From a virus (lineage: Duplodnaviria; Heunggongvirae; Uroviricota; Caudoviricetes): a stretch of DNA of 37,615 nt. The notes under the pieces were generated by a model. That model had not been told where the DNA came from, ran no database searches, and saw nothing but the letters and a program-made list of their open reading frames with translations. The stretch lies in the IMG/VR virus record IMGVR_UViG_2721755720_000002, positions 1 to 37,615 of that record; one strand, written 5' to 3'. Shown piece after piece: positions 11,976-24,616 of the stretch; the first letter of the stretch is position 1, and every line of letters starts with the position of its first letter. The translations under genes were made by a program, and so were the position numbers.

Positions 11976-12076
11976 GGAGACATCAGCGAATGCATGATGT
12001 TTGAAGAAAGAAAATCCGGCGCAACCCGAGAAGAGTTTAACGAAGCGTGGGCGCGATTAAGTGAGAGAGGGTATTT

Positions 12077-12277
12077 GTGAGCAAGTACGAAAAATTAGAT
12101 CAAAACATTCTTTCAATGCTGAGTGAAAGACCAACACCTGTTTTTGATATCTGGCTTAAATGGCGGAGCAATGGAATGTATATCGAAACCATCGATCGCC
12201 GTATGCAATACCTGAGAAAGAAAGGGCTTGTTGCAAATGTGCGTGGGAAGGGTTGGGTGAAAATTAACCTGTCATAA
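12077..12277 (+). CDS. hypothetical nin-region protein (66 aa, GTG start)
   Basis: ORF track; GAGAGAGGG upstream of the start. Confidence 0.4.
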   Translation: MSKYEKLDQNILSMLSERPTPVFDIWLKWRSNGMYIETIDRRMQYLRKKGLVANVRGKGWVKINLS

Positions 12278-12288
12278 CGGGGATTGAT

Positions 12289-12573
12289 ATGGGCGAATCA
12301 AGAAAGCAGTTTGAGGAATACGTTGCCAAAAAATTGAGATTACCATTCGAGATGATAACCGAGGCAAGAAATGGTGATAGGTACTTCGCATTTTCAAGCA
12401 TGGATATTCGTCACTCCTTAAATGAGTGGTGGGCTTTATGGCAGGCATCGCGAGCAGCTATCGAGATTGAGCTTCCTGAAAGCTTTACCATGCATAGTGG
12501 GCGAACCCCATATCTGTATGTAAGCGAGGTGCAGAGCGCCATCCGCGCTGCTGGAGTCAAAGTGAAGGAGTAA
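12289..12573 (+). CDS. hypothetical nin-region protein (94 aa)
   Basis: ORF track with Shine-Dalgarno; stop abuts the ninB start. Confidence 0.45.
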   Translation: MGESRKQFEEYVAKKLRLPFEMITEARNGDRYFAFSSMDIRHSLNEWWALWQASRAAIEIELPESFTMHSGRTPYLYVSEVQSAIRAAGVKVKE

Positions 12574-12575
12574 CG

Positions 12576-12986
12576 ATGAAGCAAACAATCTTCCTCCGAA
12601 CTAAGCAACAACAGCAAGCCGCAATAAATGCCATCCTCGCAACACCACTCGATAAAGACAAGCCAGTCACCATCCGCATTACTGACTACAAGCGCAACCT
12701 TGACCAGAACGCAAAATTTCACGCGATGCTGGCGGATATCGCTCGTCAGGTTCAATGGTGCGATAAATGGCTAAAACCAGAACAATGGAAGGTTTTGTTG
12801 ATCAGCGGTCATGCAGTGGCAACAAAACAGGAAGCTGATGTTTTGCCCGGGCTTGAAGGCGAATACGTCAACATTCGCGAAAGTAGCGCGCAGATGAGTG
12901 TGAAGCGTATGGCAAGTCTGATTGAGTACACGACAGCATGGGCTATTGGTCAGGGCGTCAGATTTACCGACAGGAGGTACGAATGA
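12576..12986 (+). CDS. ninB: NinB (Orf-family recombination protein)
   Basis: AAGGAG Shine-Dalgarno; [21 protein letters not shown] region parallels lambda NinB. Confidence 0.75.
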
Positions 12987-13159
12987 GACGACAGCGACGA
13001 AGTATCACCGACATAATCTGTGAAAACTGCAAATACCTTCCAACGAAACGCTCCAGAAATAAACGCAAGCCAATCCCAAAAGAATCTGACGTAAAAACAT
13101 TCAATTACACGGCTCACCTGTGGGATATCCGGTGGCTAAGACATCGTGCGAGGAAATGA
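12983..13159 (+). CDS. ninE: NinE (58 aa)
   Basis: GGAGG then ATG at 12983 (ATGA overlap with ninB); [23 protein letters not shown]... recalled as NinE. Confidence 0.65.
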
Positions 13160-13530
13160 CAATGGATTATTCACAGTTAAGTGATTTTGAAATTAACAGA
13201 ATGGTAGGAGACATAATTTTTAAGGGCCTTTGGGCATGTAAGCCTGAAACATCAGGGAATAACACAAATAAATGGTATTACGGAAATGCTGATACAAGTC
13301 TTGAGCCATTAAACCCTTTACCTGACTACTGCAATGATCCGAGAGCTGCATGGCCTGTAATCGCAAAACATCAGATCAGCATATGTGCATACGAAAGAAA
13401 TAATCCTGGAATGAAGAATGAATATTGGTGGGAGGCGGATAGATTTTGTGAATTTATTACCATAGACAACAACCCACTCCGCGCCGCCATGATTGTCTTT
13501 CTCATGATGCAGGACGCCAATAATGCTTAG
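13156..13530 (+). CDS. NinX-like (DUF2591) protein (124 aa)
   Basis: ATG at 13156 overlaps the ninE stop; position and size match the P22 ninX slot; family assigned from memory. Confidence 0.45.
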
Positions 13531-13699
13531 CCCATCCCAATCCATTCAATACCAGAAAGAAAGCGTCGAGCGGGCTTTAACGTGCGCTAACTGCGGTCAG
13601 AAGCTGCATGTGCTGGAAGTTCATGTGTGTGAGCACTGCTGTGCAGAACTGATGAGCGATCCGAATAGCTCAATGTACGAGGAAGAAGACGATGAGTGA
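13523..13699 (+). CDS. ninF: NinF (58 aa, Cys-rich), not in the ORF track
   Basis: [58 protein letters not shown]; overlaps the preceding stop. Confidence 0.6.
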   Translation: MLSPSQSIQYQKESVERALTCANCGQKLHVLEVHVCEHCCAELMSDPNSSMYEEEDDE

Positions 13700-13961
13700 T
13701 TTCTCTGAGCTTATTTCCTTCAAAAAAGACAGAGAAGAAATGCGGACTGAATCTGTCTATTACGTTCAACACCGGAATAAACGCTCTGTGCTTGATCAGG
13801 AGCTGGTTATTACCGGAGACCTGGCATTCAGAACATATAAGGCCAGCATGGAAATGAAGGATTTCCCTAAATGTGGTTCTGAAAGAGAAGCCGCGTTAAA
13901 GCTGGCTGAGTGGATGCAGAGAATGGCTGCTGCAATTGAGAATTACTGGAGTGAACCATAA
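13692..13961 (+). CDS. hypothetical nin-region protein (89 aa)
   Basis: ORF track; ATG overlaps the ninF stop region. Confidence 0.45.
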   Translation: MSDFSELISFKKDREEMRTESVYYVQHRNKRSVLDQELVITGDLAFRTYKASMEMKDFPKCGSEREAALKLAEWMQRMAAAIENYWSEP

Positions 13962-14251
13962 TGGCTAACCTACGCAAAGAAGCACGCGGCAGAGAATGCC
14001 AGGTACGTATTTACGGCGTATGCAATGGCAATCCTGAAACTACAGTTCTGGCACATTACCGGATGGCTGGAATTTGCGGAACGGGAATGAAGCCTGACGA
14101 CCTGATCGGCGCATGGGCTTGTAGCGCGTGTCACGATGAAATCGACCGACGCACCCATAACCTCGACAACAAAGACGCCAGACTTTACCACCTCGAAGGC
14201 GTGATCAGGACGCAGGCGGTATTGCTGAAGGAGGGGAAGGTTAAGTCATGA
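13961..14251 (+). CDS. YbcO-like (DUF1364) Cys-rich putative nuclease (96 aa)
   Basis: MANLRKEARGRECQVRIYGVCNG...CSACHDEIDRR; recalled as similar to DLP12 YbcO, which also precedes rusA. Confidence 0.6.
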   Translation: MANLRKEARGRECQVRIYGVCNGNPETTVLAHYRMAGICGTGMKPDDLIGAWACSACHDEIDRRTHNLDNKDARLYHLEGVIRTQAVLLKEGKVKS

Positions 14252-14610
14252 ATGAATATCGGTTTGTGCTTCCATACCCGCCGTCGGTGAATACCTACTG
14301 GCGAAGAAGGGGAAGCCAATACTACATCAGCGATAAAGGCCAGAAATACCGAAAAGATGTACAGCAAATAATCCGCCAACTCAAGTTAGACATTTTCACC
14401 AAATCACGACTCCGCATCAAAGTCATCGCAGACGTTCCAGACTCCCGCCGCCGCGACCTCGACAACATCCTGAAAGGTTTACTCGACTCCCTTATCCACG
14501 CCGGATTTGCGGAAGACGACGAGCAATTCGATGACATTCGCGTAATTCGTGGTGTGAAAGTACCAGGTGGAAGGCTTGGAATAAAAATCACCGAACTGGA
14601 GAACGCATGA
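14248..14610 (+). CDS. rusA: RusA Holliday-junction resolvase
   Basis: 120 aa; ...RRRDLDNILKGLLDSLIHAGF...DDIRVIRG parallels E. coli RusA. Confidence 0.85.
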   Translation: MNEYRFVLPYPPSVNTYWRRRGSQYYISDKGQKYRKDVQQIIRQLKLDIFTKSRLRIKVIADVPDSRRRDLDNILKGLLDSLIHAGFAEDDEQFDDIRVIRGVKVPGGRLGIKITELENA

Positions 14611-14795
14611 ACGCCACAATTCAAACGATACCAGAGCTTCTTATCCAGACACGAGGCAATCAGACCGAAGTGGCAAGGATGCTTTCCTGCGCAAGAGGAA
14701 CAGTGCTCAAGTACAACCGAGACAGCAAAGGCGAGCGTCACGTAATAGTTAACGGCGTCCTGATGGTCAAACAGGGCAAAAGGGGAAGGCCATGA
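14607..14795 (+). CDS. ninH: NinH-like protein (62 aa)
   Basis: GNQTEVARMLSCARGTVLKY...IVNGVLMV parallels lambda NinH. Confidence 0.65.
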   Translation: MNATIQTIPELLIQTRGNQTEVARMLSCARGTVLKYNRDSKGERHVIVNGVLMVKQGKRGRP

Positions 14796-15415
14796 GACTC
14801 GAAAGCGTAGCTAAATTTCATTCGCCAAAAAGCCCGATGATGAGCGACTCACCACGGGCTACGGCTTCTGACTCTCTTTCCGGTACTGATGTGATGGCTG
14901 CTATGGGGATGGCGCAATCACAAGCCGGATTCGGAATGGCTGCATTCTGCGGTAAGCATGAACTCAGCCAGAACGACAAACAAAAGGCTATCAACTATCT
15001 GATGCAATTTGCACACAAGGTATCGGGGAAATACCGTGGCGTGGCAAAGCTTGAAGGAAATACTAAGGCAAAGGTACTGCAAGTGCTCGCAACATTCGCT
15101 TATGCGGATTATTGCCGTAGTGCCGCGACGCCGGGCGCAAGATGCAGAGATTGCCACGGTACAGGCCGTGCGGTTGATATATCAAAAACAGAGCTGTGGG
15201 GGAGAGTTGTTGAGAAAGAATGCGGAAGATGCAAAGGTGTCGGCTATTCAAGAATGCCAGCAAGCGCCGCATATCGCGCTGTAACGATGCTAATCCCCAA
15301 CCTTACTCAACCCACCTGGTCACGCACTGTTAAGCCGCTGTATGACGCTCTGGTGGTGCAATGCCACAAAGAAGAGTCAATCGCAGACAACATTTTGAAT
15401 GCGGTCACACGTTAG
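14792..15415 (+). CDS. Q: late antiterminator Q (lambda type, 207 aa)
   Basis: MRLESVAKFHSPKSPMMSDSPRATASDSLSGTDV... matches lambda Q throughout as recalled; pR' follows. Confidence 0.92.
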   Translation: MRLESVAKFHSPKSPMMSDSPRATASDSLSGTDVMAAMGMAQSQAGFGMAAFCGKHELSQNDKQKAINYLMQFAHKVSGKYRGVAKLEGNTKAKVLQVLATFAYADYCRSAATPGARCRDCHGTGRAVDISKTELWGRVVEKECGRCKGVGYSRMPASAAYRAVTMLIPNLTQPTWSRTVKPLYDALVVQCHKEESIADNILNAVTR

Positions 15416-15457
15416 CAGCATGATTGCCACGGATGGCAACATATTAACGGCATGATA

Positions 15458-15486
15458 TTGACTTATTGAATAAAATTGGGTAAATT
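15458..15486 (+). promoter_or_regulatory. late promoter pR' (-35 TTGACT 15458-15463, -10 TAAATT 15481-15486) with the qut region
   Basis: TTGACTTATTGAATAAAATTGGGTAAATTTGACTCAACGATGG matches the lambda pR'/qut region from memory. Confidence 0.8.
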
Positions 15487-15520
15487 TGACTCAACGATGG
15501 ATAAATGCACTCGTTAAATA

Positions 15521-15550
15521 AAGCCCTGAGTTAATAGCTCGGGGCTTTTT
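15521..15550 (+). terminator. tR'-like intrinsic terminator about 55 nt downstream of the pR' start
   Basis: Hairpin GCCCTGAG-TTAATAG-CTCGGGGC followed by TTTTT. Confidence 0.55.
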
Positions 15551-15848
15551 GCGTTTTAAGCACGGACTTTCTGAAAGCACATCAAACCAAATACCAGACA
15601 GACCAAAATAATCACCTTATCCGCTGTGGCTACGGTGTGGTGTGCTTTGCATAAAAGAAAACCAGCGCAATGGCTGGCTTCGTGAAAGCGGGTGGCAAGA
15701 GGCTGCGCTAACAACCTCCTGCCGTTTTGCTCGTGCATATCGGTCACGAACAAATCTGATTACTAAACACAGTAGCCTGGATTTGTTCTATCAGTAATCG
15801 ACCTTATTCCTAATTAAATAGAGCAAATCCCCTTATTGGGGGTAAGAC

Positions 15849-16172
15849 ATGAAGATGCCAGAAAAACATGACCTGTTAGCCGCCATTCTCGCGGCAAAGG
15901 AACAAGGCATCGGGGCAATCCTTGCGTTTGCAATGGCGTACCTTCGCGGCAGATATAATGGCGGTGCGTTTACAAAAACAGTAATCGACGCAACGATGTG
16001 CGCCATTATCGCCTGGTTCATTCGTGACCTTCTCGACTTCGCAGGACTAAGTAGCAATCTCGCTTATATAACGAGCGTGTTCATCGGCTACATCGGTACT
16101 GACTCGATTGGTTCGCTTATCAAACGCTTCGCTGCTAAAAAAGCCGGAGTAGAAGATGGTGGAAATCAATAA
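15849..16172 (+). CDS. S: holin S (lambda type) with dual Met1/Met3 start
   Basis: [34 protein letters not shown]... matches lambda S; ATG at 15849 and 15855. Confidence 0.92.
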
Positions 16173-16632
16173 TCAACGTAAGGCGTTCCTCGATATGCTG
16201 GCGTGGTCAGAGGGAACTGATAACGGACGGCAGAAAACCAGAAATCATGGTTATGACGTCATTGTAGGCGGAGAGCTATTCACTGATTACTCAGATCACC
16301 CTCGCAAACTTGTCACGCTAAACCCAAAACTAAAATCAACAGCAGCCGGACGTTACCAGCTTCTTTCCCGTTGGTGGGATGCCTATCGTAAGCAGCTTGG
16401 CCTGAAAGACTTCTCTCCGAAAAGCCAGGACGCTGTGGCATTGCAACAGATTAAAGAGCGTGGCGCTTTACCGATGATTGATCGCGGTGATATCCGTCAG
16501 GCAATCGACCGTTGCAGCAATATCTGGGCTTCGTTGCCGGGGGCTGGTTATGGACAGTTCGAGCATAAGGCTGACAGCCTGATTGCAAAATTCAAAGAAG
16601 CAGGCGGAACGGTCAGAGAGATTGAGGTATGA
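16156..16632 (+). CDS. R: endolysin R (lambda-type lytic transglycosylase, 158 aa)
   Basis: [39 protein letters not shown]... matches lambda R. Confidence 0.92.
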
Positions 16633-17066
16633 GCAGAGTCACCGCGATTATCTCCGCTCTGGTTATCTGCATCATCGTCTGCCTGTCATGGGCTGTTAAT
16701 CATTACCGTGATAACGCCATGACCTACAAAGAACAGCGCGACAAAGCCACATCCATCATCGCTGACATGCAGAAGCGTCAACGTGACGTAGCAGAACTCG
16801 ATGCCAGATATACAAAGGAGCTTGCTGATGCTAACGCGACTATCGAAAGTCTCCGTGATGATGTTTCTGCTGGGCGTAAGCGGCTGCAAGTCGCCGCCTC
16901 CTGTGCAAAGTCAAAGACCGGAGCCAGCAGCATGGGCGATGGAGAAAGCCCAGGACTTACAGCAGATGCTGAACTCAATTATTACCGTCTCCGAAGTGGA
17001 ATCGACAGGATAACCGCGCAGGTTAACTACCTGCAGGAGTACATCAGGACGCAATGTCTGAAATAA
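16629..17066 (+). CDS. Rz: i-spanin Rz
   Basis: N-terminus [30 protein letters not shown] matches lambda Rz; C-terminal half diverged. Confidence 0.85.
16828..17013 (+). CDS. Rz1: o-spanin Rz1 lipoprotein embedded in the +1 frame of Rz (61 aa)
   Basis: AAGGAG Shine-Dalgarno then ATG at 16828; lipobox LLGVSGC and proline-rich [13 protein letters not shown]. Confidence 0.75.
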
Positions 17067-17097
17067 TTTTTTTGCAAATCACAAAGTCCATTTAATG

Positions 17098-17121
17098 AGC
17101 CTCGCGATGCGGGGCTTTTTT
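17098..17121 (+). terminator. intrinsic terminator after the lysis cassette
   Basis: AGCCTCGC-GAT-GCGGGGCT followed by TTTTTT. Confidence 0.55.
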
Positions 17122-17128
17122 GCAATAA

Positions 17129-17155
17129 ATGCGTACCGCAACGCATGTTTTTTTT
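17129..17155 (+). terminator. second intrinsic terminator after the lysis cassette
   Basis: ATGCGT-ACCGCA-ACGCAT followed by eight T. Confidence 0.5.
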
Positions 17156-17270
17156 ACACCGAACCTGCCCCTTTGGAATGGGCCTTTGAGGATACCAGTT
17201 AGTGCTGGCGAGCCTCGGTGGGCTGGTTTCCTGTGCGGCAAAGGTTCATTTCAAATGGTAGGTAAACGTT

Positions 17271-17792
17271 ATGAATATCGTGCCACTTAATTACAAAGGT
17301 GAAATTGTCAGTTTCAACACTGATGGTTGGATCAACGTCACAGGTGTTGCTGAGAGATTTGGGAAACGCATTGATAACTGGATGCGTTTGGCAGAAACGC
17401 TTGAATACGTTCGTGCTTTAGACGAAGCGTTGACCGGGAAAGAATCTCAAATTTTACATCCCTCACAATCGAGGTATGTAAAAACCAGCAAGGCACGAAA
17501 GGACAGGGGTGGTGGTACGTGGCTACATCCAAAACTTTCAGTTGCATTTGCCCGTTGGTGTGATGCTCGTTTTGCTGTGTGGTGCGACCTGCACATTGAT
17601 AGTCTGCTTCGCGGTGAACTGACTGAGCAGCAGAAATATGAGCAAGCATGTCGCATTCGCGATGACCGGAAATCAAAAGCCAGCAATGGGGCAAGAGAGA
17701 TGGCTCGCTGGCGATGGGATAAGCCGGTTATTGAAGCAAATGTTGAGTACTGGCGCGAGCAACTGCAGTTGACTCTCGATATCGCGTGCTGA
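17271..17792 (+). CDS. KilA-N domain protein (173 aa)
   Basis: N-terminus MNIVPLNYKGEIVSFNTDGWINVTGVAERFGKRIDNWMRL resembles the KilA-N domain; two terminators upstream and about 350 bp of non-coding DNA downstream. Confidence 0.6.
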   Translation: MNIVPLNYKGEIVSFNTDGWINVTGVAERFGKRIDNWMRLAETLEYVRALDEALTGKESQILHPSQSRYVKTSKARKDRGGGTWLHPKLSVAFARWCDARFAVWCDLHIDSLLRGELTEQQKYEQACRIRDDRKSKASNGAREMARWRWDKPVIEANVEYWREQLQLTLDIAC

Positions 17793-18149
17793 TGGCAAAC
17801 GCAAAACTGCGTTATCGAAAAAATCAAAGCATTACTAGAACTGAGCAACGGCTATCCATTACAAAGCCCATCTACGGGTGGGCTTGATAATGAAACCAGA
17901 ATTTATTCTGGGAAACCAGTTACGGCAGTACAGCGAAACAACCCAAGCCAGTAAGTGGGGAAATAACACTGGCAGCCACTGAAAGATGAACCTCATGCCT
18001 TATGGCAAAAAAGATTCTTTGTGGTGGCGGACTGATGGAAAGACATCGGTTATTGCAGAGACCATTCAATGAGTGGTCTCGAAAATGACTTATACCCTAC
18101 ACGGGATAACTTAACTGATATCCCTTTTAACGGATAAACGGAGCCAACA

Positions 18150-18392
18150 ATGGCAGAGATTATTCCCATGACTGAAGAACAGAAATTCCAGTTAGAGATT
18201 TACAAACTGGTCATGAACCAGAACGCAGCCGCAGAAGAAGCATTTCAGTTCATTGGCACTGACGAGCTGAAGCTTGAGTTATTCAAAATTCACTTCCAGT
18301 CAGGCGGCGCTAATTCAGATATCACGACCCGCACTATCGAAGCGGTGCGTAAATCGAAGGAAGCGTTAGACCTGTTCACTACCGGAGCATAA
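18150..18392 (+). CDS. hypothetical protein (80 aa) upstream of the terminase genes
   Basis: ORF track with GGAG upstream. Confidence 0.4.
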   Translation: MAEIIPMTEEQKFQLEIYKLVMNQNAAAEEAFQFIGTDELKLELFKIHFQSGGANSDITTRTIEAVRKSKEALDLFTTGA

Positions 18393-18471
18393 ACATGGCA
18401 ACTCAAGGTTTCGACAACCCATCCAAATTCCGCGATGAATGGGATAAGCAAGCAGAAGGGAAATAATCAAT

Positions 18472-18897
18472 ATGGCGACTGAGAAAAAGAACGTCGGTCG
18501 CCCTTCGGATTACCTGCCGGAGGTGGCTGATGATATCTGTGCGCTGCTTGCCTCCGGGGAAAGTCTGGTTAAGGTTTGCAAGCGCCCCGGCATGCCAGCA
18601 AAGGCTACTGTATTTCGCTGGCTGTCAGAGCATGACGAATTTAGAGACAAGTACGCGAAGGCAACTGAGGCACGAGCTGATTCTATTTTCGAAGAGATAT
18701 TCGAAATTGCTGACAATGCGATTCCAGATGCTGCTGAGGTGGCAAAGGCAAGACTTCGCGTTGATACCCGCAAATGGGCGCTGGCCCGAATGAATCCCCG
18801 TAAGTATGGCGACAAGGTAACTAACGAGCTTGTCGGTAAGGACGGCGGCGCAATCCAGATTGAAACATCACCGATGAGCACTCTATTCGGAAAATGA
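18472..18897 (+). CDS. terminase small subunit (Sf6 gp1-like)
   Basis: 141 aa; GRPSDYLPEVADDICALLASGESLVKVCKRPGMP...RKWALARMNPRKYGDK recalled as Sf6-type small terminase. Confidence 0.8.
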   Translation: MATEKKNVGRPSDYLPEVADDICALLASGESLVKVCKRPGMPAKATVFRWLSEHDEFRDKYAKATEARADSIFEEIFEIADNAIPDAAEVAKARLRVDTRKWALARMNPRKYGDKVTNELVGKDGGAIQIETSPMSTLFGK

Positions 18898-20306
18898 CCT
18901 CGATTAATCCTATCTTTGAACCGTTCATTGAGGCGCATCGCTACAAAGTCGCCAAAGGCGGTCGAGGTAGCGGTAAGTCATGGGCAATTGCGAGGCTGCT
19001 TGTTGAAGCGGCGCGTCGGCAGCCAGTGCGTATTCTCTGCGCTCGTGAACTGCAAAACAGTATCAGCGATTCAGTAATCCGGTTGCTTGAAGACACCATA
19101 GAGCGGGAAGGGTATTCGGCTGAGTTTGAAATTCAGCGTTCAATGATTCGTCATCTCGGAACGAATGCTGAATTCATGTTCTACGGCATCAAAAACAACC
19201 CTACGAAGATTAAATCGCTCGAAGGTATTGATATCTGCTGGGTGGAAGAAGCGGAGGCGGTAACGAAGGAATCGTGGGATATTCTGATACCAACCATTCG
19301 CAAGCCGTTTTCCGAAATATGGGTGAGCTTCAACCCGAAAAACATCCTCGACGATACCTATCAGCGATTCGTTGTAAATCCTCCCGATGATATTTGTCTG
19401 CTGACGGTGAACTACACCGACAACCCGCATTTTCCTGAAGTTCTCCGTCTGGAGATGGAAGAGTGTAAACGCAGAAATCCGACACTGTATCGTCACATCT
19501 GGCTTGGTGAGCCAGTAAGCGCAAGTGATATGGCAATCATCAAACGTGAATGGCTTGAAGCCGCAACCGATGCGCACAAGAAACTCGGATGGAAAGCGAA
19601 AGGCGCGGTTGTTTCTGCACATGACCCGTCAGATACAGGGCCAGATGCTAAAGGTTACGCATCGCGTCACGGTTCGGTGGTTAAGCGCATTGCCGAAGGT
19701 CTGCTGATGGACATCAACGATGGTGCTGACTGGGCTACTTCGCTGGCTATTAAAGACGGCGCTGACCATTACCTGTGGGATGGTGATGGTGTTGGTGCCG
19801 GGCTACGCAGACAGACAACGGAAGCGTTCTCCGGCAAGAAAATCACCGCCACGATGTTCAAGGGCAGTGAATCGCCATTCGATGAAGATGCGCCGTATCA
19901 GGCCGGAGCATGGGCTGATGAAGTCGTACAGGGTGACAACGTTCGCACTATTGGCGATGTGTTCCGCAATAAGCGAGCACAATTCTATTACGCGCTGGCT
20001 GACAGGCTGTATCTGACATATCGGGCGGTTGTTCACGGTGAGTATGCAGACCCAGACGACATGCTGAGTTTCGACAAAGAAGCGATAGGCGAGAAGATGC
20101 TGGAGAAGCTGTTTGCAGAACTGACGCAGATTCAGCGCAAATTCAATAATAACGGGAAGCTGGAGCTTATGACTAAGGTCGAAATGAAGCAGAAGCTCGG
20201 TATTCCATCTCCTAACCTGGCTGATGCGCTGATGATGTGTATGCATTGCCCGGCATTGGTCCGCGAAGAAACAGAAATATACGTTCCCTCATCCTCCGGT
20301 TGGTAA
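18894..20306 (+). CDS. terminase large subunit
   Basis: 470 aa; Walker A KGGRGSGKSWAIA, C-terminal nuclease-like domain; ATGA overlap with the small subunit. Confidence 0.9.
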   Translation: MTSINPIFEPFIEAHRYKVAKGGRGSGKSWAIARLLVEAARRQPVRILCARELQNSISDSVIRLLEDTIEREGYSAEFEIQRSMIRHLGTNAEFMFYGIKNNPTKIKSLEGIDICWVEEAEAVTKESWDILIPTIRKPFSEIWVSFNPKNILDDTYQRFVVNPPDDICLLTVNYTDNPHFPEVLRLEMEECKRRNPTLYRHIWLGEPVSASDMAIIKREWLEAATDAHKKLGWKAKGAVVSAHDPSDTGPDAKGYASRHGSVVKRIAEGLLMDINDGADWATSLAIKDGADHYLWDGDGVGAGLRRQTTEAFSGKKITATMFKGSESPFDEDAPYQAGAWADEVVQGDNVRTIGDVFRNKRAQFYYALADRLYLTYRAVVHGEYADPDDMLSFDKEAIGEKMLEKLFAELTQIQRKFNNNGKLELMTKVEMKQKLGIPSPNLADALMMCMHCPALVREETEIYVPSSSGW

Positions 20307-20308
20307 AC

Positions 20309-22435
20309 ATGGCAGAGACATTAGAGAAAAAACATGAGCGGATCATGCTCAGGTTTGACCGCGCCTATTCTCCACAGCAGGAAGTGCGCGAAAAGTGCAT
20401 TGAAGCTACGAGGTTTGCTCGTGTCCCCGGAGGTCAATGGGAAGGAGCAACGGCGGCTGGAACTAAGCTTGATGAGCAGTTCGAGAAGTATCCTAAGTTT
20501 GAAATCAATAAGGTAGCAACTGAACTTAACCGCATCATTGCAGAATACCGCAATAACAGAATCACCGTTAAGTTTCGTCCTGGTGACAGAGAGGCAAGCG
20601 AAGAGTTAGCCAATAAATTAAATGGTCTGTTCCGTGCTGACTACGAAGAAACCGATGGCGGTGAGGCTTGCGATAATGCATTTGACGACGCTGCTACTGG
20701 TGGTTTCGGTTGCTTCCGTTTGACGTCGATGCTGGTCAATGAATACGACCCCATGGACGATCGTCAGCGTATTGCTATTGAACCAATATACGACCCGTCG
20801 CGCTCTGTGTGGTTTGACCCTGACGCTAAGAAGTACGACAAATCTGACGCGTTGTGGGCGTTCTGCATGTATTCGTTGTCACCTGAAAAATATGAGGCTG
20901 AATACGGAAAGAAACCTCCTGCTTCTCTGGATGTAACGTCTATGACCAGTTGGGAATATGACTGGTTTGATGCAGATGTTATTTACATAGCGAAGTATTA
21001 CGAAGTTCGTAAAGAGTCTGTTGACGTCATCAGTTATCGACATCCAATCACTGGAGAGATTGCAACATACGACAGTGATCAGGTTGAAGATATTGAAGAT
21101 GAACTGGCAATAGCTGGATTTCAGGAAGTGGCAAGGCGCTCAGTGAAGCGCCGTCGTGTGTATGTATCAGTAGTGGATGGTGATGGTTTCCTTGAGAAAC
21201 CTCGACGTATTCCTGGTGAGCATATCCCCCTCATCCCGGTTTATGGAAAACGCTGGTTCATTGATGACATTGAGCGTGTCGAAGGGCACATTGCAAAAGC
21301 AATGGATCCACAGCGTTTGTACAACCTTCAGGTTTCAATGCTGGCTGATACTGCAGCGCAAGACCCCGGTCAGATCCCTATAGTTGGCGTGGAGCAAATT
21401 CGTGGACTTGAGAAGCACTGGGAGGCTCGCAACAAGAAACGCCCAGCGTTCTTGCCGTTGCGCGAAGTGAGAGATAAATCTGGCAACATTATCGCTGGAG
21501 CTACCCCGACAGGATATACACAGCCTGCGGTTATGAATCAGGCATTGGCTGCATTACTACAGCAAACCAGTGCAGATATTCAGGAGGTTACAGGCGGCAG
21601 TCAGGCCATGCAGCAGATGCCAAGTAATATTGCTCAGGAAACGGTTAACAACTTGATGAACAGAGCAGATATGGCTTCGTTTATCTATCTGGACAATATG
21701 GCGAAAAGTCTTAAACGCGCTGGTGAAGTATGGCTGTCAATGGCGCGTGAAGTGTACGGTTCAGAACGTGAAGTGCGCATCGTTAACGAAGATGGAAGTG
21801 ATGATATCGCTGTCCTGAGCGCACAGGTTGTTGACAGGCAAACAGGGGCTGTTGTTGCGTTAAATGACCTTTCTGTCGGTCGATACGATGTGACGGTTGA
21901 TGTTGGACCAAGCTACACAGCACGACGTGATGCAACGGTTTCTGTACTGACAAATGTCCTTAGCTCTATGCTTCCAACAGACCCAATGCGCCCGGCAATT
22001 CAGGGTATTATTCTGGACAATATCGATGGCGAAGGCCTTGATGACTTCAAAGAGTACAACCGAAACCAACTGCTGATATCTGGTATTGCAAAACCACGCA
22101 ATGAGAAAGAGCAGCAGATTGTTCAACAGGCGCAAATGGCAGCACAAAGCCAGCCAAATCCTGAAATGGTTCTCGCTCAGGCGCAAATGGTAGCAGCGCA
22201 GGCAGAAGCGCAAAAAGCAACTAACGAAACTGCTCAAACTCAAATCAAAGCATTTACTGCCCAGCAGGATGCGATGGAGAGTCAGGCAAACACTGTCTAT
22301 AAACTGGCTCAAGCCAGAAACATCGATGACAAAGCAGTGATGGAGGCAATACGCCTTCTGAAAGATGTCGCCGAGTCACAACAACAGCAATTCCAGTCAC
22401 CACCACAGTCACCGGCAGACTTAATGCCGAGTTAA
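20309..22435 (+). CDS. portal protein (about 708 aa, P22/Sf6-type)
   Basis: ATG at 20309 just after the terminase stop; long Gln/Ala-rich C-terminal helix typical of P22-like portals; the track ORF extends upstream into the terminase gene. Confidence 0.85.
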   Translation: MAETLEKKHERIMLRFDRAYSPQQEVREKCIEATRFARVPGGQWEGATAAGTKLDEQFEKYPKFEINKVATELNRIIAEYRNNRITVKFRPGDREASEELANKLNGLFRADYEETDGGEACDNAFDDAATGGFGCFRLTSMLVNEYDPMDDRQRIAIEPIYDPSRSVWFDPDAKKYDKSDALWAFCMYSLSPEKYEAEYGKKPPASLDVTSMTSWEYDWFDADVIYIAKYYEVRKESVDVISYRHPITGEIATYDSDQVEDIEDELAIAGFQEVARRSVKRRRVYVSVVDGDGFLEKPRRIPGEHIPLIPVYGKRWFIDDIERVEGHIAKAMDPQRLYNLQVSMLADTAAQDPGQIPIVGVEQIRGLEKHWEARNKKRPAFLPLREVRDKSGNIIAGATPTGYTQPAVMNQALAALLQQTSADIQEVTGGSQAMQQMPSNIAQETVNNLMNRADMASFIYLDNMAKSLKRAGEVWLSMAREVYGSEREVRIVNEDGSDDIAVLSAQVVDRQTGAVVALNDLSVGRYDVTVDVGPSYTARRDATVSVLTNVLSSMLPTDPMRPAIQGIILDNIDGEGLDDFKEYNRNQLLISGIAKPRNEKEQQIVQQAQMAAQSQPNPEMVLAQAQMVAAQAEAQKATNETAQTQIKAFTAQQDAMESQANTVYKLAQARNIDDKAVMEAIRLLKDVAESQQQQFQSPPQSPADLMPS

Positions 22436-22448
22436 CCAGGAGTAATCA

Positions 22449-23333
22449 ATGGAAAACGAACTGATCATCGACGGTCAGGTTATTGACCTGTCTGAAACAC
22501 AGGAAAATGCAGAAGAAACCATCATCCAAACAGAGTCACAGCCTGAGAATGAAAGCCAGGATGACAACGGTAAAGAGGTGGAAACTGAGCCTGAAAAAAC
22601 CGAAGAGACACCAGAAGATTACGCCTTGCGTATTGGTGATGAAGAAATTCAGCTTAACGCTGACGATGATGATCACATTGACGGGCAACCTGCACCGCAA
22701 TGGGTGAAAGATCTTCGCAAAGGCTTCAAAGAAACACAGAAAGAAAACCGTGAGTTGCGCCGCCAGCTTGAGGAAGCATTAGCCAAGCCAGCGGAACATC
22801 AGCAACCACAGCCAGACGCTATTCCACCAAAACCGACTCTTGAGTCGTGTGATTATGACGAACAGGCGTTTGAACAGGCATTGACTGATTGGCATGAGAA
22901 AAAAGGCCGTGTCGAACAGCAGCAGCAACAAAAACTACGTCAGCAACAGGAATACCAGCAGCGTTTCCAGCAAAGGGTAGAAGCGCATAAACAACGGGCA
23001 GCCAAACTTCCTGTGAAAGATTATCAGGAAATGGAAGCCATTGTTCTTAGTGAGCTACCACCAATTCAGCAGGAAATCATCATTCACTGTGCAGACGAAG
23101 GCTCTGAACTACTCGCCTATGGCTTAGGTAAGAGCCAGCAATTACGCCAGCGTGTAGCCGCTGAGACAGATCCAATTCGCGCAGCATTCCTCTTGGGGCA
23201 GATTAGCAAACAGGTAAGCCTTGCTCCAAAACCAAAGAAAGCCATCAAGCCAGAGCCGGAAGTACGTGGTGGCGGTGCTGATGCGAAACAAGACGAATTC
23301 AACAAATTATGCCCCGGCGCAAAAATCGAATAA
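22449..23333 (+). CDS. scaffolding protein
   Basis: 294 aa, acidic N-terminus, Gln-rich coiled-coil middle, helix-turn-helix-like C-terminus; between portal and coat. Confidence 0.75.
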   Translation: MENELIIDGQVIDLSETQENAEETIIQTESQPENESQDDNGKEVETEPEKTEETPEDYALRIGDEEIQLNADDDDHIDGQPAPQWVKDLRKGFKETQKENRELRRQLEEALAKPAEHQQPQPDAIPPKPTLESCDYDEQAFEQALTDWHEKKGRVEQQQQQKLRQQQEYQQRFQQRVEAHKQRAAKLPVKDYQEMEAIVLSELPPIQQEIIIHCADEGSELLAYGLGKSQQLRQRVAAETDPIRAAFLLGQISKQVSLAPKPKKAIKPEPEVRGGGADAKQDEFNKLCPGAKIE

Positions 23334-23344
23334 GGAAAAGATAA

Positions 23345-24616
23345 ATGCCTAACAATCTCGACAGTAACGTCAGTCAAATCGTTCTGAAAAAATTCCTTCC
23401 GGGTTTTATGTCAGATTTAGTTCTGGCGAAAACCGTAGACCGTCAGTTGCTGGCAGGTGAAATCAACTCCAGCACTGGCGATAGCGTTAGCTTTAAACGT
23501 CCGCATCAATTCTCATCCCTCCGTACTCCCACTGGTGATATTTCAGGGCAAAATAAAAACAACCTGATCTCAGGTAAAGCTACGGGGCGTGTAGGTAACT
23601 ACATCACTGTTGCTGTTGAATATCAGCAACTGGAGGAAGCGATCAAGCTTAACCAGCTGGAAGAAATTCTCGCGCCGGTTCGCCAGCGAATCGTTACCGA
23701 CCTTGAAACAGAGCTTGCTCACTTCATGATGAATAACGGTGCGTTGTCACTTGGTAGCCCCAATACTCCAATCACCAAATGGTCTGATGTTGCGCAGACG
23801 GCATCTTTCCTGAAAGACCTCGGCGTTAATGAAGGTGAAAACTATGCTGTAATGGATCCATGGTCTGCACAGCGACTTGCTGATGCGCAGACTGGTTTGC
23901 ATGCTTCAGATCAATTGGTTCGTACTGCATGGGAGAACGCACAGATCCCAACCAATTTTGGCGGCATTCGCGCACTGATGTCTAATGGGCTTGCCTCTCG
24001 TACGCAGGGGGCATTTGGCGGAACACTGACAGTCAAAACACAGCCAACTGTTACCTATAACGCAGTTAAAGACTCATACCAGTTCACTGTAACATTGACC
24101 GGAGCGACAGCCAGCGTTACAGGTTTTCTGAAAGCTGGTGATCAGGTCAAATTCACCAATACCTACTGGCTGCAACAGCAGACCAAACAGGCGTTGTATA
24201 ACGGAGCCACACCAATTAGCTTCACTGCAACGGTTACTGCTGATGCTAATTCAGACAGCGGTGGCGATGTGACGGTTACGCTTTCTGGTGTTCCGATTTA
24301 TGACACTACAAACCCGCAGTACAACTCTGTAAGTCGTCAGGTAGAGGCAGGCGATGCCGTATCTGTAGTAGGCACTGCTAGCCAGACAATGAAGCCAAAC
24401 CTGTTCTATAACAAGTTCTTCTGTGGACTTGGCTCTATCCCACTGCCGAAACTGCACAGTATTGATTCTGCTGTTGCAACATATGAAGGTTTCTCCATCC
24501 GCGTACATAAATACGCAGATGGCGATGCCAACGTGCAAAAAATGCGCTTCGACTTACTGCCTGCATATGTGTGCTTTAACCCTCACATGGGCGGTCAGTT
24601 CTTCGGTAATCCGTAA
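23345..24616 (+). CDS. major coat protein (Sf6/P22 type, 423 aa)
   Basis: Size and position; followed by a terminator; similarity recalled. Confidence 0.8.
   Translation: MPNNLDSNVSQIVLKKFLPGFMSDLVLAKTVDRQLLAGEINSSTGDSVSFKRPHQFSSLRTPTGDISGQNKNNLISGKATGRVGNYITVAVEYQQLEEAIKLNQLEEILAPVRQRIVTDLETELAHFMMNNGALSLGSPNTPITKWSDVAQTASFLKDLGVNEGENYAVMDPWSAQRLADAQTGLHASDQLVRTAWENAQIPTNFGGIRALMSNGLASRTQGAFGGTLTVKTQPTVTYNAVKDSYQFTVTLTGATASVTGFLKAGDQVKFTNTYWLQQQTKQALYNGATPISFTATVTADANSDSGGDVTVTLSGVPIYDTTNPQYNSVSRQVEAGDAVSVVGTASQTMKPNLFYNKFFCGLGSIPLPKLHSIDSAVATYEGFSIRVHKYADGDANVQKMRFDLLPAYVCFNPHMGGQFFGNP

Follow-up and report, generated by a model that had tools for sequence, protein, structure and literature searches.

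The gene for a KilA-N-domain protein located between the lysis and packaging genes of a 37,615-nt viral DNA (IMG/VR record IMGVR_UViG_2721755720_000002; this whole stretch is referred to as the window) is probably one allele of a late-operon cassette, which is insulated by a terminator, damped at the level of translation, and exchanged by recombination in conserved flanks. The frame of the cassette would run from the stop codon of the Rz gene through a terminator (T1), a small hairpin, a leader of about 100 nt that pairs with the Shine-Dalgarno (SD) sequence, the cargo open reading frame (ORF), and one or more two-tier hairpins with a core block to the packaging genes. The window is an HK620/Sf6-like Escherichia coli phage or prophage of the P22-like group (Lederbergvirus). 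Its closest whole-genome relative was HK620 (96.6% identity over 79% of positions 12000-24000), and its packaging and head genes matched those of Sf6 at 97.9%. The KilA-N gene itself is not new, and the locus is already known and annotated. The structured flanks of the gene are undescribed, as far as Rfam and the literature search show, and are the only part that merits follow-up.

The same 1.08 kb was found at 97-99% identity in Salmonella phage vB_SemP_Emek (Emek), in Escherichia phages HK544 and ev099, and in at least 135 complete E. coli genomes, in which the gene is already annotated as "KilA-N domain-containing protein." Other related phages carry different genes in the slot, which is bounded on the left by Rz, the last lysis gene, and on the right, in the P22-like phages Emek, P22, and HK620 as annotated, by the DUF2560 gene. 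HK620 has hkbK and hkbL instead of this KilA-N gene, P22 has rha and the pid moron, HK022 and mEp234 have a gene for a gp73-like KilA-N+P63C protein, and phage Huey has unrelated genes. An O157:H7 prophage (L207, 2460-2570) lacked a cargo gene altogether and retained Rz, T1, one hairpin, and the core. Among 120 IMG/VR viral contigs carrying the downstream 25-mer, the slot was occupied by Rha, several KilA-N types, T5orf172, or Gp49-family genes or was empty, and only three contigs carried this KilA-N type. Like a moron, the gene therefore lies between genes that are adjacent or otherwise separated in relatives. The first-pass annotation of this DNA had listed terminators, a KilA-N ORF, about 350 bp poor in ORFs, and terminase-proximal genes, all of which were recovered at the same positions. 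It had also called the slot a known hotspot, and this was borne out by the HK620 and P22 gene contents and by the contig survey; the slot is the documented rha/pid late-region moron hotspot of P22 (Cenens et al. 2013; PMC3573128).

The Rz gene is followed by two terminator-like hairpins. The T1 hairpin (17097-17117) was folded as GAGCCUCGC-GAU-GCGGGGCUU followed by T6, the corresponding site carries a rho-independent terminator annotation in the records of Emek, HK544, and mEpX1, and T1 was kept after Rz in most loci when the leader variants were compared. In other variants of the locus, the second hairpin (T2) was retained with differing sequences and with no T-run, so that T2 is terminator-like in this variant only. 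A G+C-rich hairpin followed by a U-run is predicted for both T1 and T2, as expected for intrinsic terminators. The consensus terminator scan found T2 and missed T1, which has a canonical 9-bp stem and T6, and the output of the scan is therefore not to be taken as complete. Two consecutive terminators had been noticed in the first reading and are present (T1 by folding, T2 by the scan), but they do not close the lysis operon as terminators usually would. In lambdoid phages, a single Q-antiterminated late transcript covers lysis and packaging genes alike, and these terminators sit upstream of the cargo, unlike those of a classical moron.

Next to the terminators is a structured leader that ends at the ATG of the cargo. 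In the 330 nt after Rz, approximately 80 distinct loci shared an architecture rather than a sequence, namely T1, a small G+C hairpin, an interrupted hairpin of about 100 nt, the SD sequence, and the ATG, with at least four divergent sequence variants of the leader. In the window, the long hairpin (17163-17263) comprised about 34 bp broken by an asymmetric internal loop, with a minimum free energy (MFE) of -49.2 kcal/mol (z = -4.8) for the leader, and its base is predicted to pair an anti-SD segment with the SD sequence (AGGU, 7 nt before the ATG). The predicted probability that the SD sequence is unpaired was 0.02 in the window, with a mean of 0.16 over 32 variants. Alignment with MAFFT and RNAalifold recovered the upper leader stems only, and realignment to a covariance model was required. 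This model (R1), built from 28 unique leaders, matched the window at 17156-17273 (83.5 bits, E = 8e-21) and was found as one copy per locus, always on the late-sense strand and ending at the cargo ATG. On the model-fitted alignment, 81.6% of cells were paired, compared with 41 to 56% when the partners were slid. Both sides had changed in 21 of the 34 leader pairs, compared with 10.4 ± 1.6 in shuffled alignments (none of 500 shuffles was as high), and three upper-stem pairs switched cleanly (AU18/GC15, GC16/CG15, and CG17/AU7/GC7). In addition, each leader variant on its own still folded into a long hairpin. Leader variants in P22, HK022, HK620, and L167 had no match in Rfam 15.

The cargo behind the leader belonged to the pRha, pRha+ORF11CD3, KilA-N, KilA-N+ORF11CD3, KilA-N+P63C, and T5orf172 architectures. 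The same leader was also present at another site in the late operon, where it follows immediately on Q and its terminator and precedes an HNH_3+AP2 gene. In L167 (1540-2440), the leader was followed by this endonuclease-like gene and then by two tRNA genes, and in L129 (10950-11224, minus strand), only a truncated 54-aa remnant followed. A contig of Shimwellia pseudoproteus (NZ_WBXP01000045, 4404-5403) carried the same leader, a Rha-type cargo, and the same trailer, and the cassette frame is therefore not confined to Escherichia, Shigella, and Salmonella. In a 17-mer scan of genome contigs, nearly all matches were due to chance, and the relevant ones were in E. coli and Shimwellia only; the DLP12 prophage of E. 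coli K-12 did not contain the block. The leader also touches an existing annotation. The annotated GTG start of P22 rha (P22-pbi AF527608, 896-1501; 201 aa) lies inside the leader hairpin (model match 850-967), and the end of the leader model coincides with an ATG 69 nt farther downstream, from which Rha would have 178 aa. The 23-residue N-terminal extension of P22 Rha is probably an annotation artifact.

The trailer, downstream of the cargo, contains two copies of a hairpin of two-tier design, with a 5-bp outer stem, a conserved 2x2 internal loop CA/GA, a 9- to 10-bp inner stem, and a 3' arm ending in UGAUAAUG. Copy A had an MFE of -20.6 kcal/mol (z = -5.3) and scored 61.1 bits with the trailer model (R2), and the outer stem of copy B was weakened in the window by a C-to-A change. 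Compensatory variants of copy B were GAGGCC/GGCCUC in P22 and AAAGCC/GGCUUU in Emek. Over 26 distinct orthologous and paralogous copies, 98.4% of cells were paired, compared with 33 to 50% when slid, and 41 cells had changed on both sides, compared with 14.1 ± 4.0 in shuffled alignments. Single-sided changes gave mainly G.U pairs, and because G.U pairs fit only the + strand, the element appears to act as + strand RNA. R2 matches scored 44 to 61 bits in the sense orientation and at most 21 bits in antisense, and such matches were found only in this locus. Weak R2 matches of 26 to 31 bits were seen about 2 kb upstream of the main locus in L108 (5007-5042 and 5628-5663) and L154 (8753-8788, minus strand), and these may be diverged copies near the Q-holin region. 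In other phages, the trailer hairpin stands directly after the stop codon of hkbL or of a Gp49-family gene. No variant of the trailer hairpin had a match in Rfam 15.

Deletions and fusions in other phages are consistent with homologous, and occasionally illegitimate, recombination in the conserved flanks. In Stx2 phage 1717 (L009, 2501-2591), hairpin A is joined to the block of the hairpin B tail and core, with the intervening DNA deleted, and the locus L147 has lost its cargo through a deletion that starts within the leader, in its 3' half, and reaches into the trailer. The HK97-like phages HK544, HK022, mEp234, and mEpX1 carry the first 82 nt of the DUF2560 gene (window 18150-18231) upstream of an HNH endonuclease gene, which appears to be left over from an exchange of modules with P22-like phages. 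The near-identity of leader and trailer in phages that otherwise differ would allow homologous recombination within these flanks to swap, insert, or delete the cargo.

A consensus scan of the + strand at 16600-18600 found no sigma-70-like promoter, although weak promoters may escape such a scan, and manual inspection of the core and leader gave only poor hexamers. The promoter that had been proposed for the non-coding stretch was thus not seen in the scan. Neither the scan nor folding placed a hairpin with a T-run after the KilA-N stop codon. An upstream promoter and a downstream terminator of its own, as a moron would have, were therefore not found for the gene by the consensus scan. High expression in the BTP1 lysogen is limited to bstA, cI, pid, gtrA, and gtrC, and rha is not listed (PMC7067206). 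The high expression of pid next to an unlisted rha lends indirect support to a cargo that is silent in the lysogen. In the proposed cassette, unmodified RNA polymerase would halt at T1 and leave the cargo silent in the lysogen, and transcription of the cargo would occur only late, by the Q-modified, terminator-resistant polymerase. The leader hairpin would then damp or gate translation, either by occluding the SD sequence or until the hairpin is opened or cleaved, for which RNase III is a candidate, and such damping would be appropriate for a DNA-binding protein that may be toxic. In the + strand late mRNA, the two-tier hairpins would act on stability, on processing, or on the gating of an AUG in their 3' arm.

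Several points weigh against this explanation. Late-only expression is deduced from the absent promoter match and from general lambdoid biology, and weak promoters escape consensus scans, as illustrated by the functional pid promoter with its poor -10 hexamer AATCCT (PMC8835761). For both the sequestration of the SD sequence and the involvement of RNase III, the basis is thermodynamic prediction only. At some columns of the lower leader stem, 8 to 18 of 33 sequences were scored as unpaired; this poorer alignment arises because the leader variants differ in register. P22, Salmonella phage SE16, and Stx2 phage 1717 are without large parts of the trailer, which is therefore dispensable. All copies are 85-99% identical, and part of the conservation therefore reflects recent spread and not selection. 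Finally, the function of the KilA-N protein is assigned solely by analogy.

The cassette may, tentatively, be of a more general kind. Leader and trailer would in that case be regulatory RNA motifs acting in cis, which together make a portable "expression frame" for DNA-binding-protein and nuclease genes of a selfish or toxic kind, and they would also serve as recombination linkers that turn the slot into an exchanger of cassettes. In such a frame, the terminator would insulate the cargo, the leader would gate its translation, perhaps with RNase III or a trans-acting factor, and the 3' hairpins would set the fate of the mRNA.

The non-coding stretch between the KilA-N stop codon and the DUF2560 gene (17793-18149) was examined for coding content and structure. 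Its longest ORFs had 33 to 49 codons, and none was conserved. The + strand ORFs of 30, 27, 21, and 29 codons were rejected on account of 1- to 2-nt indels, poly-A length variation, and loss of the ATG in homologues, and the same frame-shifting indels fell inside both of the - strand ORFs of 45 and 49 codons. A Pfam scan of two small + strand ORFs (33 and 34 aa) gave no match. The about 350 bp without a convincing ORF reported earlier thus correspond to these 357 bp, and the several small hairpins reported there exceeded chance, with an MFE of the + strand of -114.2 kcal/mol compared with -79.0 ± 5.1 kcal/mol for shuffled sequences (z = -6.9); the - strand gave z = -4.2. A weak hairpin at 17799-17812, in the 60-bp tail next to the KilA-N gene, was not significant (z = -1.3) and had no T-run.

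When searched alone, positions 17793-18149 matched 209 phage records and 2555 of 5426 E. coli genomes. Homology began right after the stop codon of the upstream gene, at 17793 for the KilA-N gene, 17853 for hkbL, and 17922 for rha, and ran to 18138, after which three unrelated packaging contexts followed. These were DUF2560 with Sf6- or P22-type small terminases, an opposed ylcI-like gene with a lambda-like small terminase, and HNH endonuclease modules. Judged from these alignments, the non-coding stretch is a conserved backbone of lambdoid phages and not cargo, and the "island" is the ORF only. The first-pass annotation had regarded the whole interval as a gene island, to be compared with related prophages for variable content; the comparison showed such content for the gene, and the non-coding part was instead conserved core sequence. 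Insertions recurred at about 17905-17915 (67 bp in HK620), at 18047/18048 (a Gp49-family gene, and the orf53 segment of Emek and HK544), and at 18097-18137. The last of these is the insertion point of pid in P22, which lies between orf25 and orf80 (PMC3573128), and the window is empty there.

Some further observations concern annotated or candidate genes in this stretch. A paralogue of the ORF at 18395-18466 was found at the 18047 breakpoint in Emek (2686-2750) and HK544 (approximately 2677-2745), with 88% identity over 42 nt. The "hypothetical protein" of 118 aa of SE16 (1710-2066) is an N-terminally over-extended DUF2560 homologue that starts inside the non-coding stretch, and the annotated start of Emek orf53 (2586-2747) also lies inside it; both are probably not real as annotated. 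A search of the window against Rfam 15 gave no match at the gathering score, and for 16900-18500 only chance-level matches were obtained (E ≥ 0.85), such as Proteo-phage-1 with 16.8 bits against a gathering score of 42. The small RNA suggested for the stretch was therefore not found among known Rfam families, and the small RNAs Pas, AgvB, and AsxR are located near Q and the holin gene and not in this stretch. Integron-like attC cassettes, with an imperfect hairpin after each cargo, were also rejected, because no integrase was present and the G.U substitutions point to selection at the RNA level.

It is unlikely that the non-coding stretch is mostly neutral debris, made of decayed ORFs and old terminator stems, recently spread and serving only as a substrate for recombination. 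The high identity of the copies fits such debris, as do the two relics, namely the 82-nt DUF2560 start before the HNH gene and the copy of the 23-codon ORF at 18047. The broken small ORFs could be pseudogenes, and Stx2 phage 1717, SE16, and P22 are viable without large parts of the stretch. However, neutral debris would not account for the excess folding of the + strand, for the 98.4% pairing, in which substitutions within both hairpin copies and across paralogous types are compensatory or G.U-only, or for the strand asymmetry of the R2 scores. In addition, hardly any variation was seen in the 2x2 internal loop and in the 68-bp core, while their neighbors vary.

The KilA-N protein was next characterized from its sequence and predicted structure. 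As the earlier reading had stated, a KilA-N-domain protein follows the terminators; the 173-aa ORF matched Pfam KilA-N (PF04383) with E = 8.2e-22 and 77.5 bits against a cut-off of 23.8 over residues 7-114. A domain search of the C-terminal half, which had been recommended, gave divided results. The direct Pfam scan for ORF11CD3 (PF10549) stayed under the cut-off of 25 with 16.2 bits (E = 0.013), but the precomputed Pfam assignment of a 100%-identical protein listed both PF04383 and PF10549. Homologues (n = 703) occurred in enterobacteria and Pseudomonas, and nearly all of the 120 listed carried both domains; a few short or truncated ones among these 120 had PF04383 only. The C-terminus aligned with that of HkbK (BLASTP E = 1.7e-9), which links on to the C-terminus of P22 Rha (E = 2.4e-7), and HkbK (50.5 bits) and Rha both pass the ORF11CD3 cut-off strongly. 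PHROG 129 ("transcriptional regulator") covered the full length of the protein, and PHROG 518 (Rha-like) matched its C-terminal 55 residues, at positions 118-170, with E = 4e-9. Because of the HkbK and Rha alignments and the precomputed PF10549, these data point to a divergent ORF11CD3 domain despite the direct score below the cut-off. In the confident AlphaFold2 model (predicted local distance difference test score, 93.1), an N-terminal domain of mixed beta/alpha structure is followed by a long helical hairpin at the C-terminus. A Foldseek search of the PDB yielded no significant match, the top one being the APSES protein PCG2 (4ux5; E = 0.53, probability 0.28), and neither a PDB sequence search nor NCBIfam gave a match for the protein. 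With its KilA-N and ORF11CD3 domains, the protein would be a member of the "Bro network," in which phage DNA-binding proteins exchange domains and which takes in KilA-N, ORF11CD3, and Phage_pRha (PMC10111431). Rha of P22 and phi80 is reported to inhibit phage growth in integration host factor (IHF) mutants (Henthorn and Friedman 1995, PMC177009), and this is the only known phenotype for a protein of this slot. By analogy with P22 Rha, a non-essential late function on DNA, harmful to phage growth if misregulated, may be expected.

These results bear on whether the KilA-N gene is an autonomous moron or defense gene, that is, a toxin, regulator, or antiphage factor expressed from the prophage, which we consider quite unlikely. 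The suggestion of defense cargo found little in PADLOC-DB 2.0, which gave a single weak match (PDC-S22, E = 1.2e-5) limited to the KilA-N domain, with no full-length defense-system match and no partner genes, the neighbors being Rz and DUF2560. BstA, the abortive-infection protein of BTP1, contains a KilA-N domain. The upstream terminators would isolate the gene from read-through of the lysis genes, as an autonomous unit requires, and the P22 slot holds a true moron, pid, with its own promoter and terminator (PMC3573128, PMC8835761). However, the KilA-N gene was without a promoter-like site in the + strand scan and without a terminator after it, it shares its leader with Rha, HkbK, and endonuclease cargo, and the base composition at the locus showed no anomaly. 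Moreover, rha is outside the five genes highly expressed in BTP1 lysogeny, whereas the neighboring pid is inside.

The core block is the most widespread piece of the locus, being present in about 2500 E. coli genomes and beside three types of packaging module. It contains four alternating TTATCCC/GGGATAA-like half-sites, which form two inverted pairs about 28 bp apart, a 9-codon mini-ORF, of which P22 orf25 is an extended form, and three mutually exclusive hairpins. A functional DNA site in the core, such as paired operators for a dimeric protein, or a small-RNA gene there is improbable. The arrangement of the half-sites, the near-invariance over 101 variants, and the presence of the core whatever the upstream cargo or downstream packaging type would fit such a site. 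However, no promoter or terminator was found there by the scan and no Rfam family matched, and the 3' part of the core is missing in P22, where the pid insert replaces it, and in SE16. In addition, no candidate binding protein covaries with the core, because the cargo differs between phages. A packaging-related role of the stretch as a pac or cos accessory site, which had also been proposed and which would suit its position directly upstream of the terminase-proximal genes, has hardly any probability, because small terminases of the Sf6, P22, and lambda-like types and HK97-like HNH/terminase modules all follow this same sequence, and a packaging signal would not be expected to accompany at least three unrelated families of small terminase. 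The pac sites of P22-like phages lie within the small-terminase gene.

Table 1. Positions of the cassette elements and neighboring genes in the window
Feature	Positions	Strand	Description	Basis
Q-type antiterminator	14792-15415		upstream of lysis genes	ORF list, Pfam
Holin	15849-16172		lysis gene	
Lysozyme	16156-16632		lysis gene	
Rz spanin gene	16629-17066	+	Rz1 embedded, +1 frame	Pfam Phage_lysis, E = 1.9e-34
Intrinsic terminator T1 (predicted)	17097-17123	+	9-bp G+C-rich stem, 3-nt loop, T6	fold
Second hairpin T2	17129-17155	+	6 bp, 6-nt loop (17129-17146), then T8	terminator scan, fold
Structured leader RNA (predicted)	17156-17273	+	118 nt, ends at cargo ATG	fold, covariance model R1
KilA-N cargo gene	17271-17792	+	173 aa; KilA-N residues 7-114, C-terminal helical hairpin 118-172	
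60-bp tail	17793-17852	+	travels only with this KilA-N type	BLAST block boundaries
Trailer hairpin copy A	17857-17892	+	outer stem CAUUA/UAAUG, 2x2 loop CA/GA, 9-bp inner stem	
Conserved non-coding spacer	17893-18047	+	further hairpins, e.g., 17896-17911	alignments
Trailer hairpin copy B	18051-18087	+	UAUUG...GAGACCAUUC-AAU-GAGUGGUCUC...AAAUG	R2 56.1 bits, folds
Core block	18071-18138	.	near-invariant, 68 bp	column conservation, 101 unique sequences
DUF2560 gene	18150-18392	+	homologue of P22 orf80 and HK620 hkbM	Pfam DUF2560, E = 1.1e-43
23-codon ORF MATQGFDNPSKFRDEWDKQAEGK	18395-18466		between DUF2560 and small terminase	
Sf6-type small terminase	18472-18897		then large terminase, portal	

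Altogether, the locus gave no sign of an autonomous moron, a defense system, a small-RNA gene, or a packaging site. The KilA-N gene adds nothing new, and the slot is a textbook mosaic hotspot. The frame could matter, in that one leader is shared by cargo of at least six architectures, including HNH+AP2, at two sites in the late operon. If the leader truly gates translation, the ability of phages to tolerate and exchange Bro-network genes that may be toxic would be accounted for, the Rha and KilA-N proteins, long unexplained, would become more accessible to experiment, and the catalogues of phage regulation would gain two RNA motifs. Caution is warranted for annotations, since the GTG start of P22 rha and several "hypothetical proteins" of the stretch sit within RNA structure.

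The elements of the cassette resemble known systems at several levels. The leader would be comparable in mechanism to hairpins of phage mRNA leaders that sequester the SD sequence or are processed by RNase III, such as the lambda N leader and T7 R1.1-type sites. Immediately before the start codon, it has a long hairpin interrupted by an asymmetric internal loop, and its modeled shape is suggestive of an RNase III processing site. The trailer hairpins may be compared in mechanism with intercistronic stabilizer hairpins of the repetitive extragenic palindromic (REP)-like kind, that is, hairpins without a U-tract between the cistrons of a long operon. The window elements have no sequence or Rfam relation to the lambda N leader, to R1.1-type sites, or to REP-like hairpins. 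At the protein level, the two-domain make-up, small size, and domain shuffling are shared with the Bro network (PMC10111431) and with Orf11 of Pseudomonas phage D3, the Bro network being a family defined by domains rather than by function. HkbK of HK620 has the KilA-N+ORF11CD3 architecture, the slot, and, from window position 17853, the trailer in common with the window. In contrast, HK620 has another sequence variant of the leader and the extra small gene hkbL, and HkbK is only about 28% identical to the window protein, in the C-terminal part only. The P22 rha-orf25-pid-orf80 region occupies the same slot, with a leader about 80% and a trailer 92% identical and with orf80 as the DUF2560 gene. 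P22 Rha shares the C-terminal ORF11CD3, but its N-terminal domain is Phage_pRha and not KilA-N, and P22 carries the divergently transcribed pid moron in the core block, where the window represents the "empty" state. The closest systems are Emek orf173 (YP_006560618), HK544 gp62, and the ev099 gene, in which the same gene, leader, and trailer follow Rz at 97-99% nucleotide identity. Emek and HK544 differ from the window by an extra segment of about 115 to 130 bp at window position 18047, and in HK544 the module is set within an HK97-like siphovirus, ahead of the HNH endonuclease gene.

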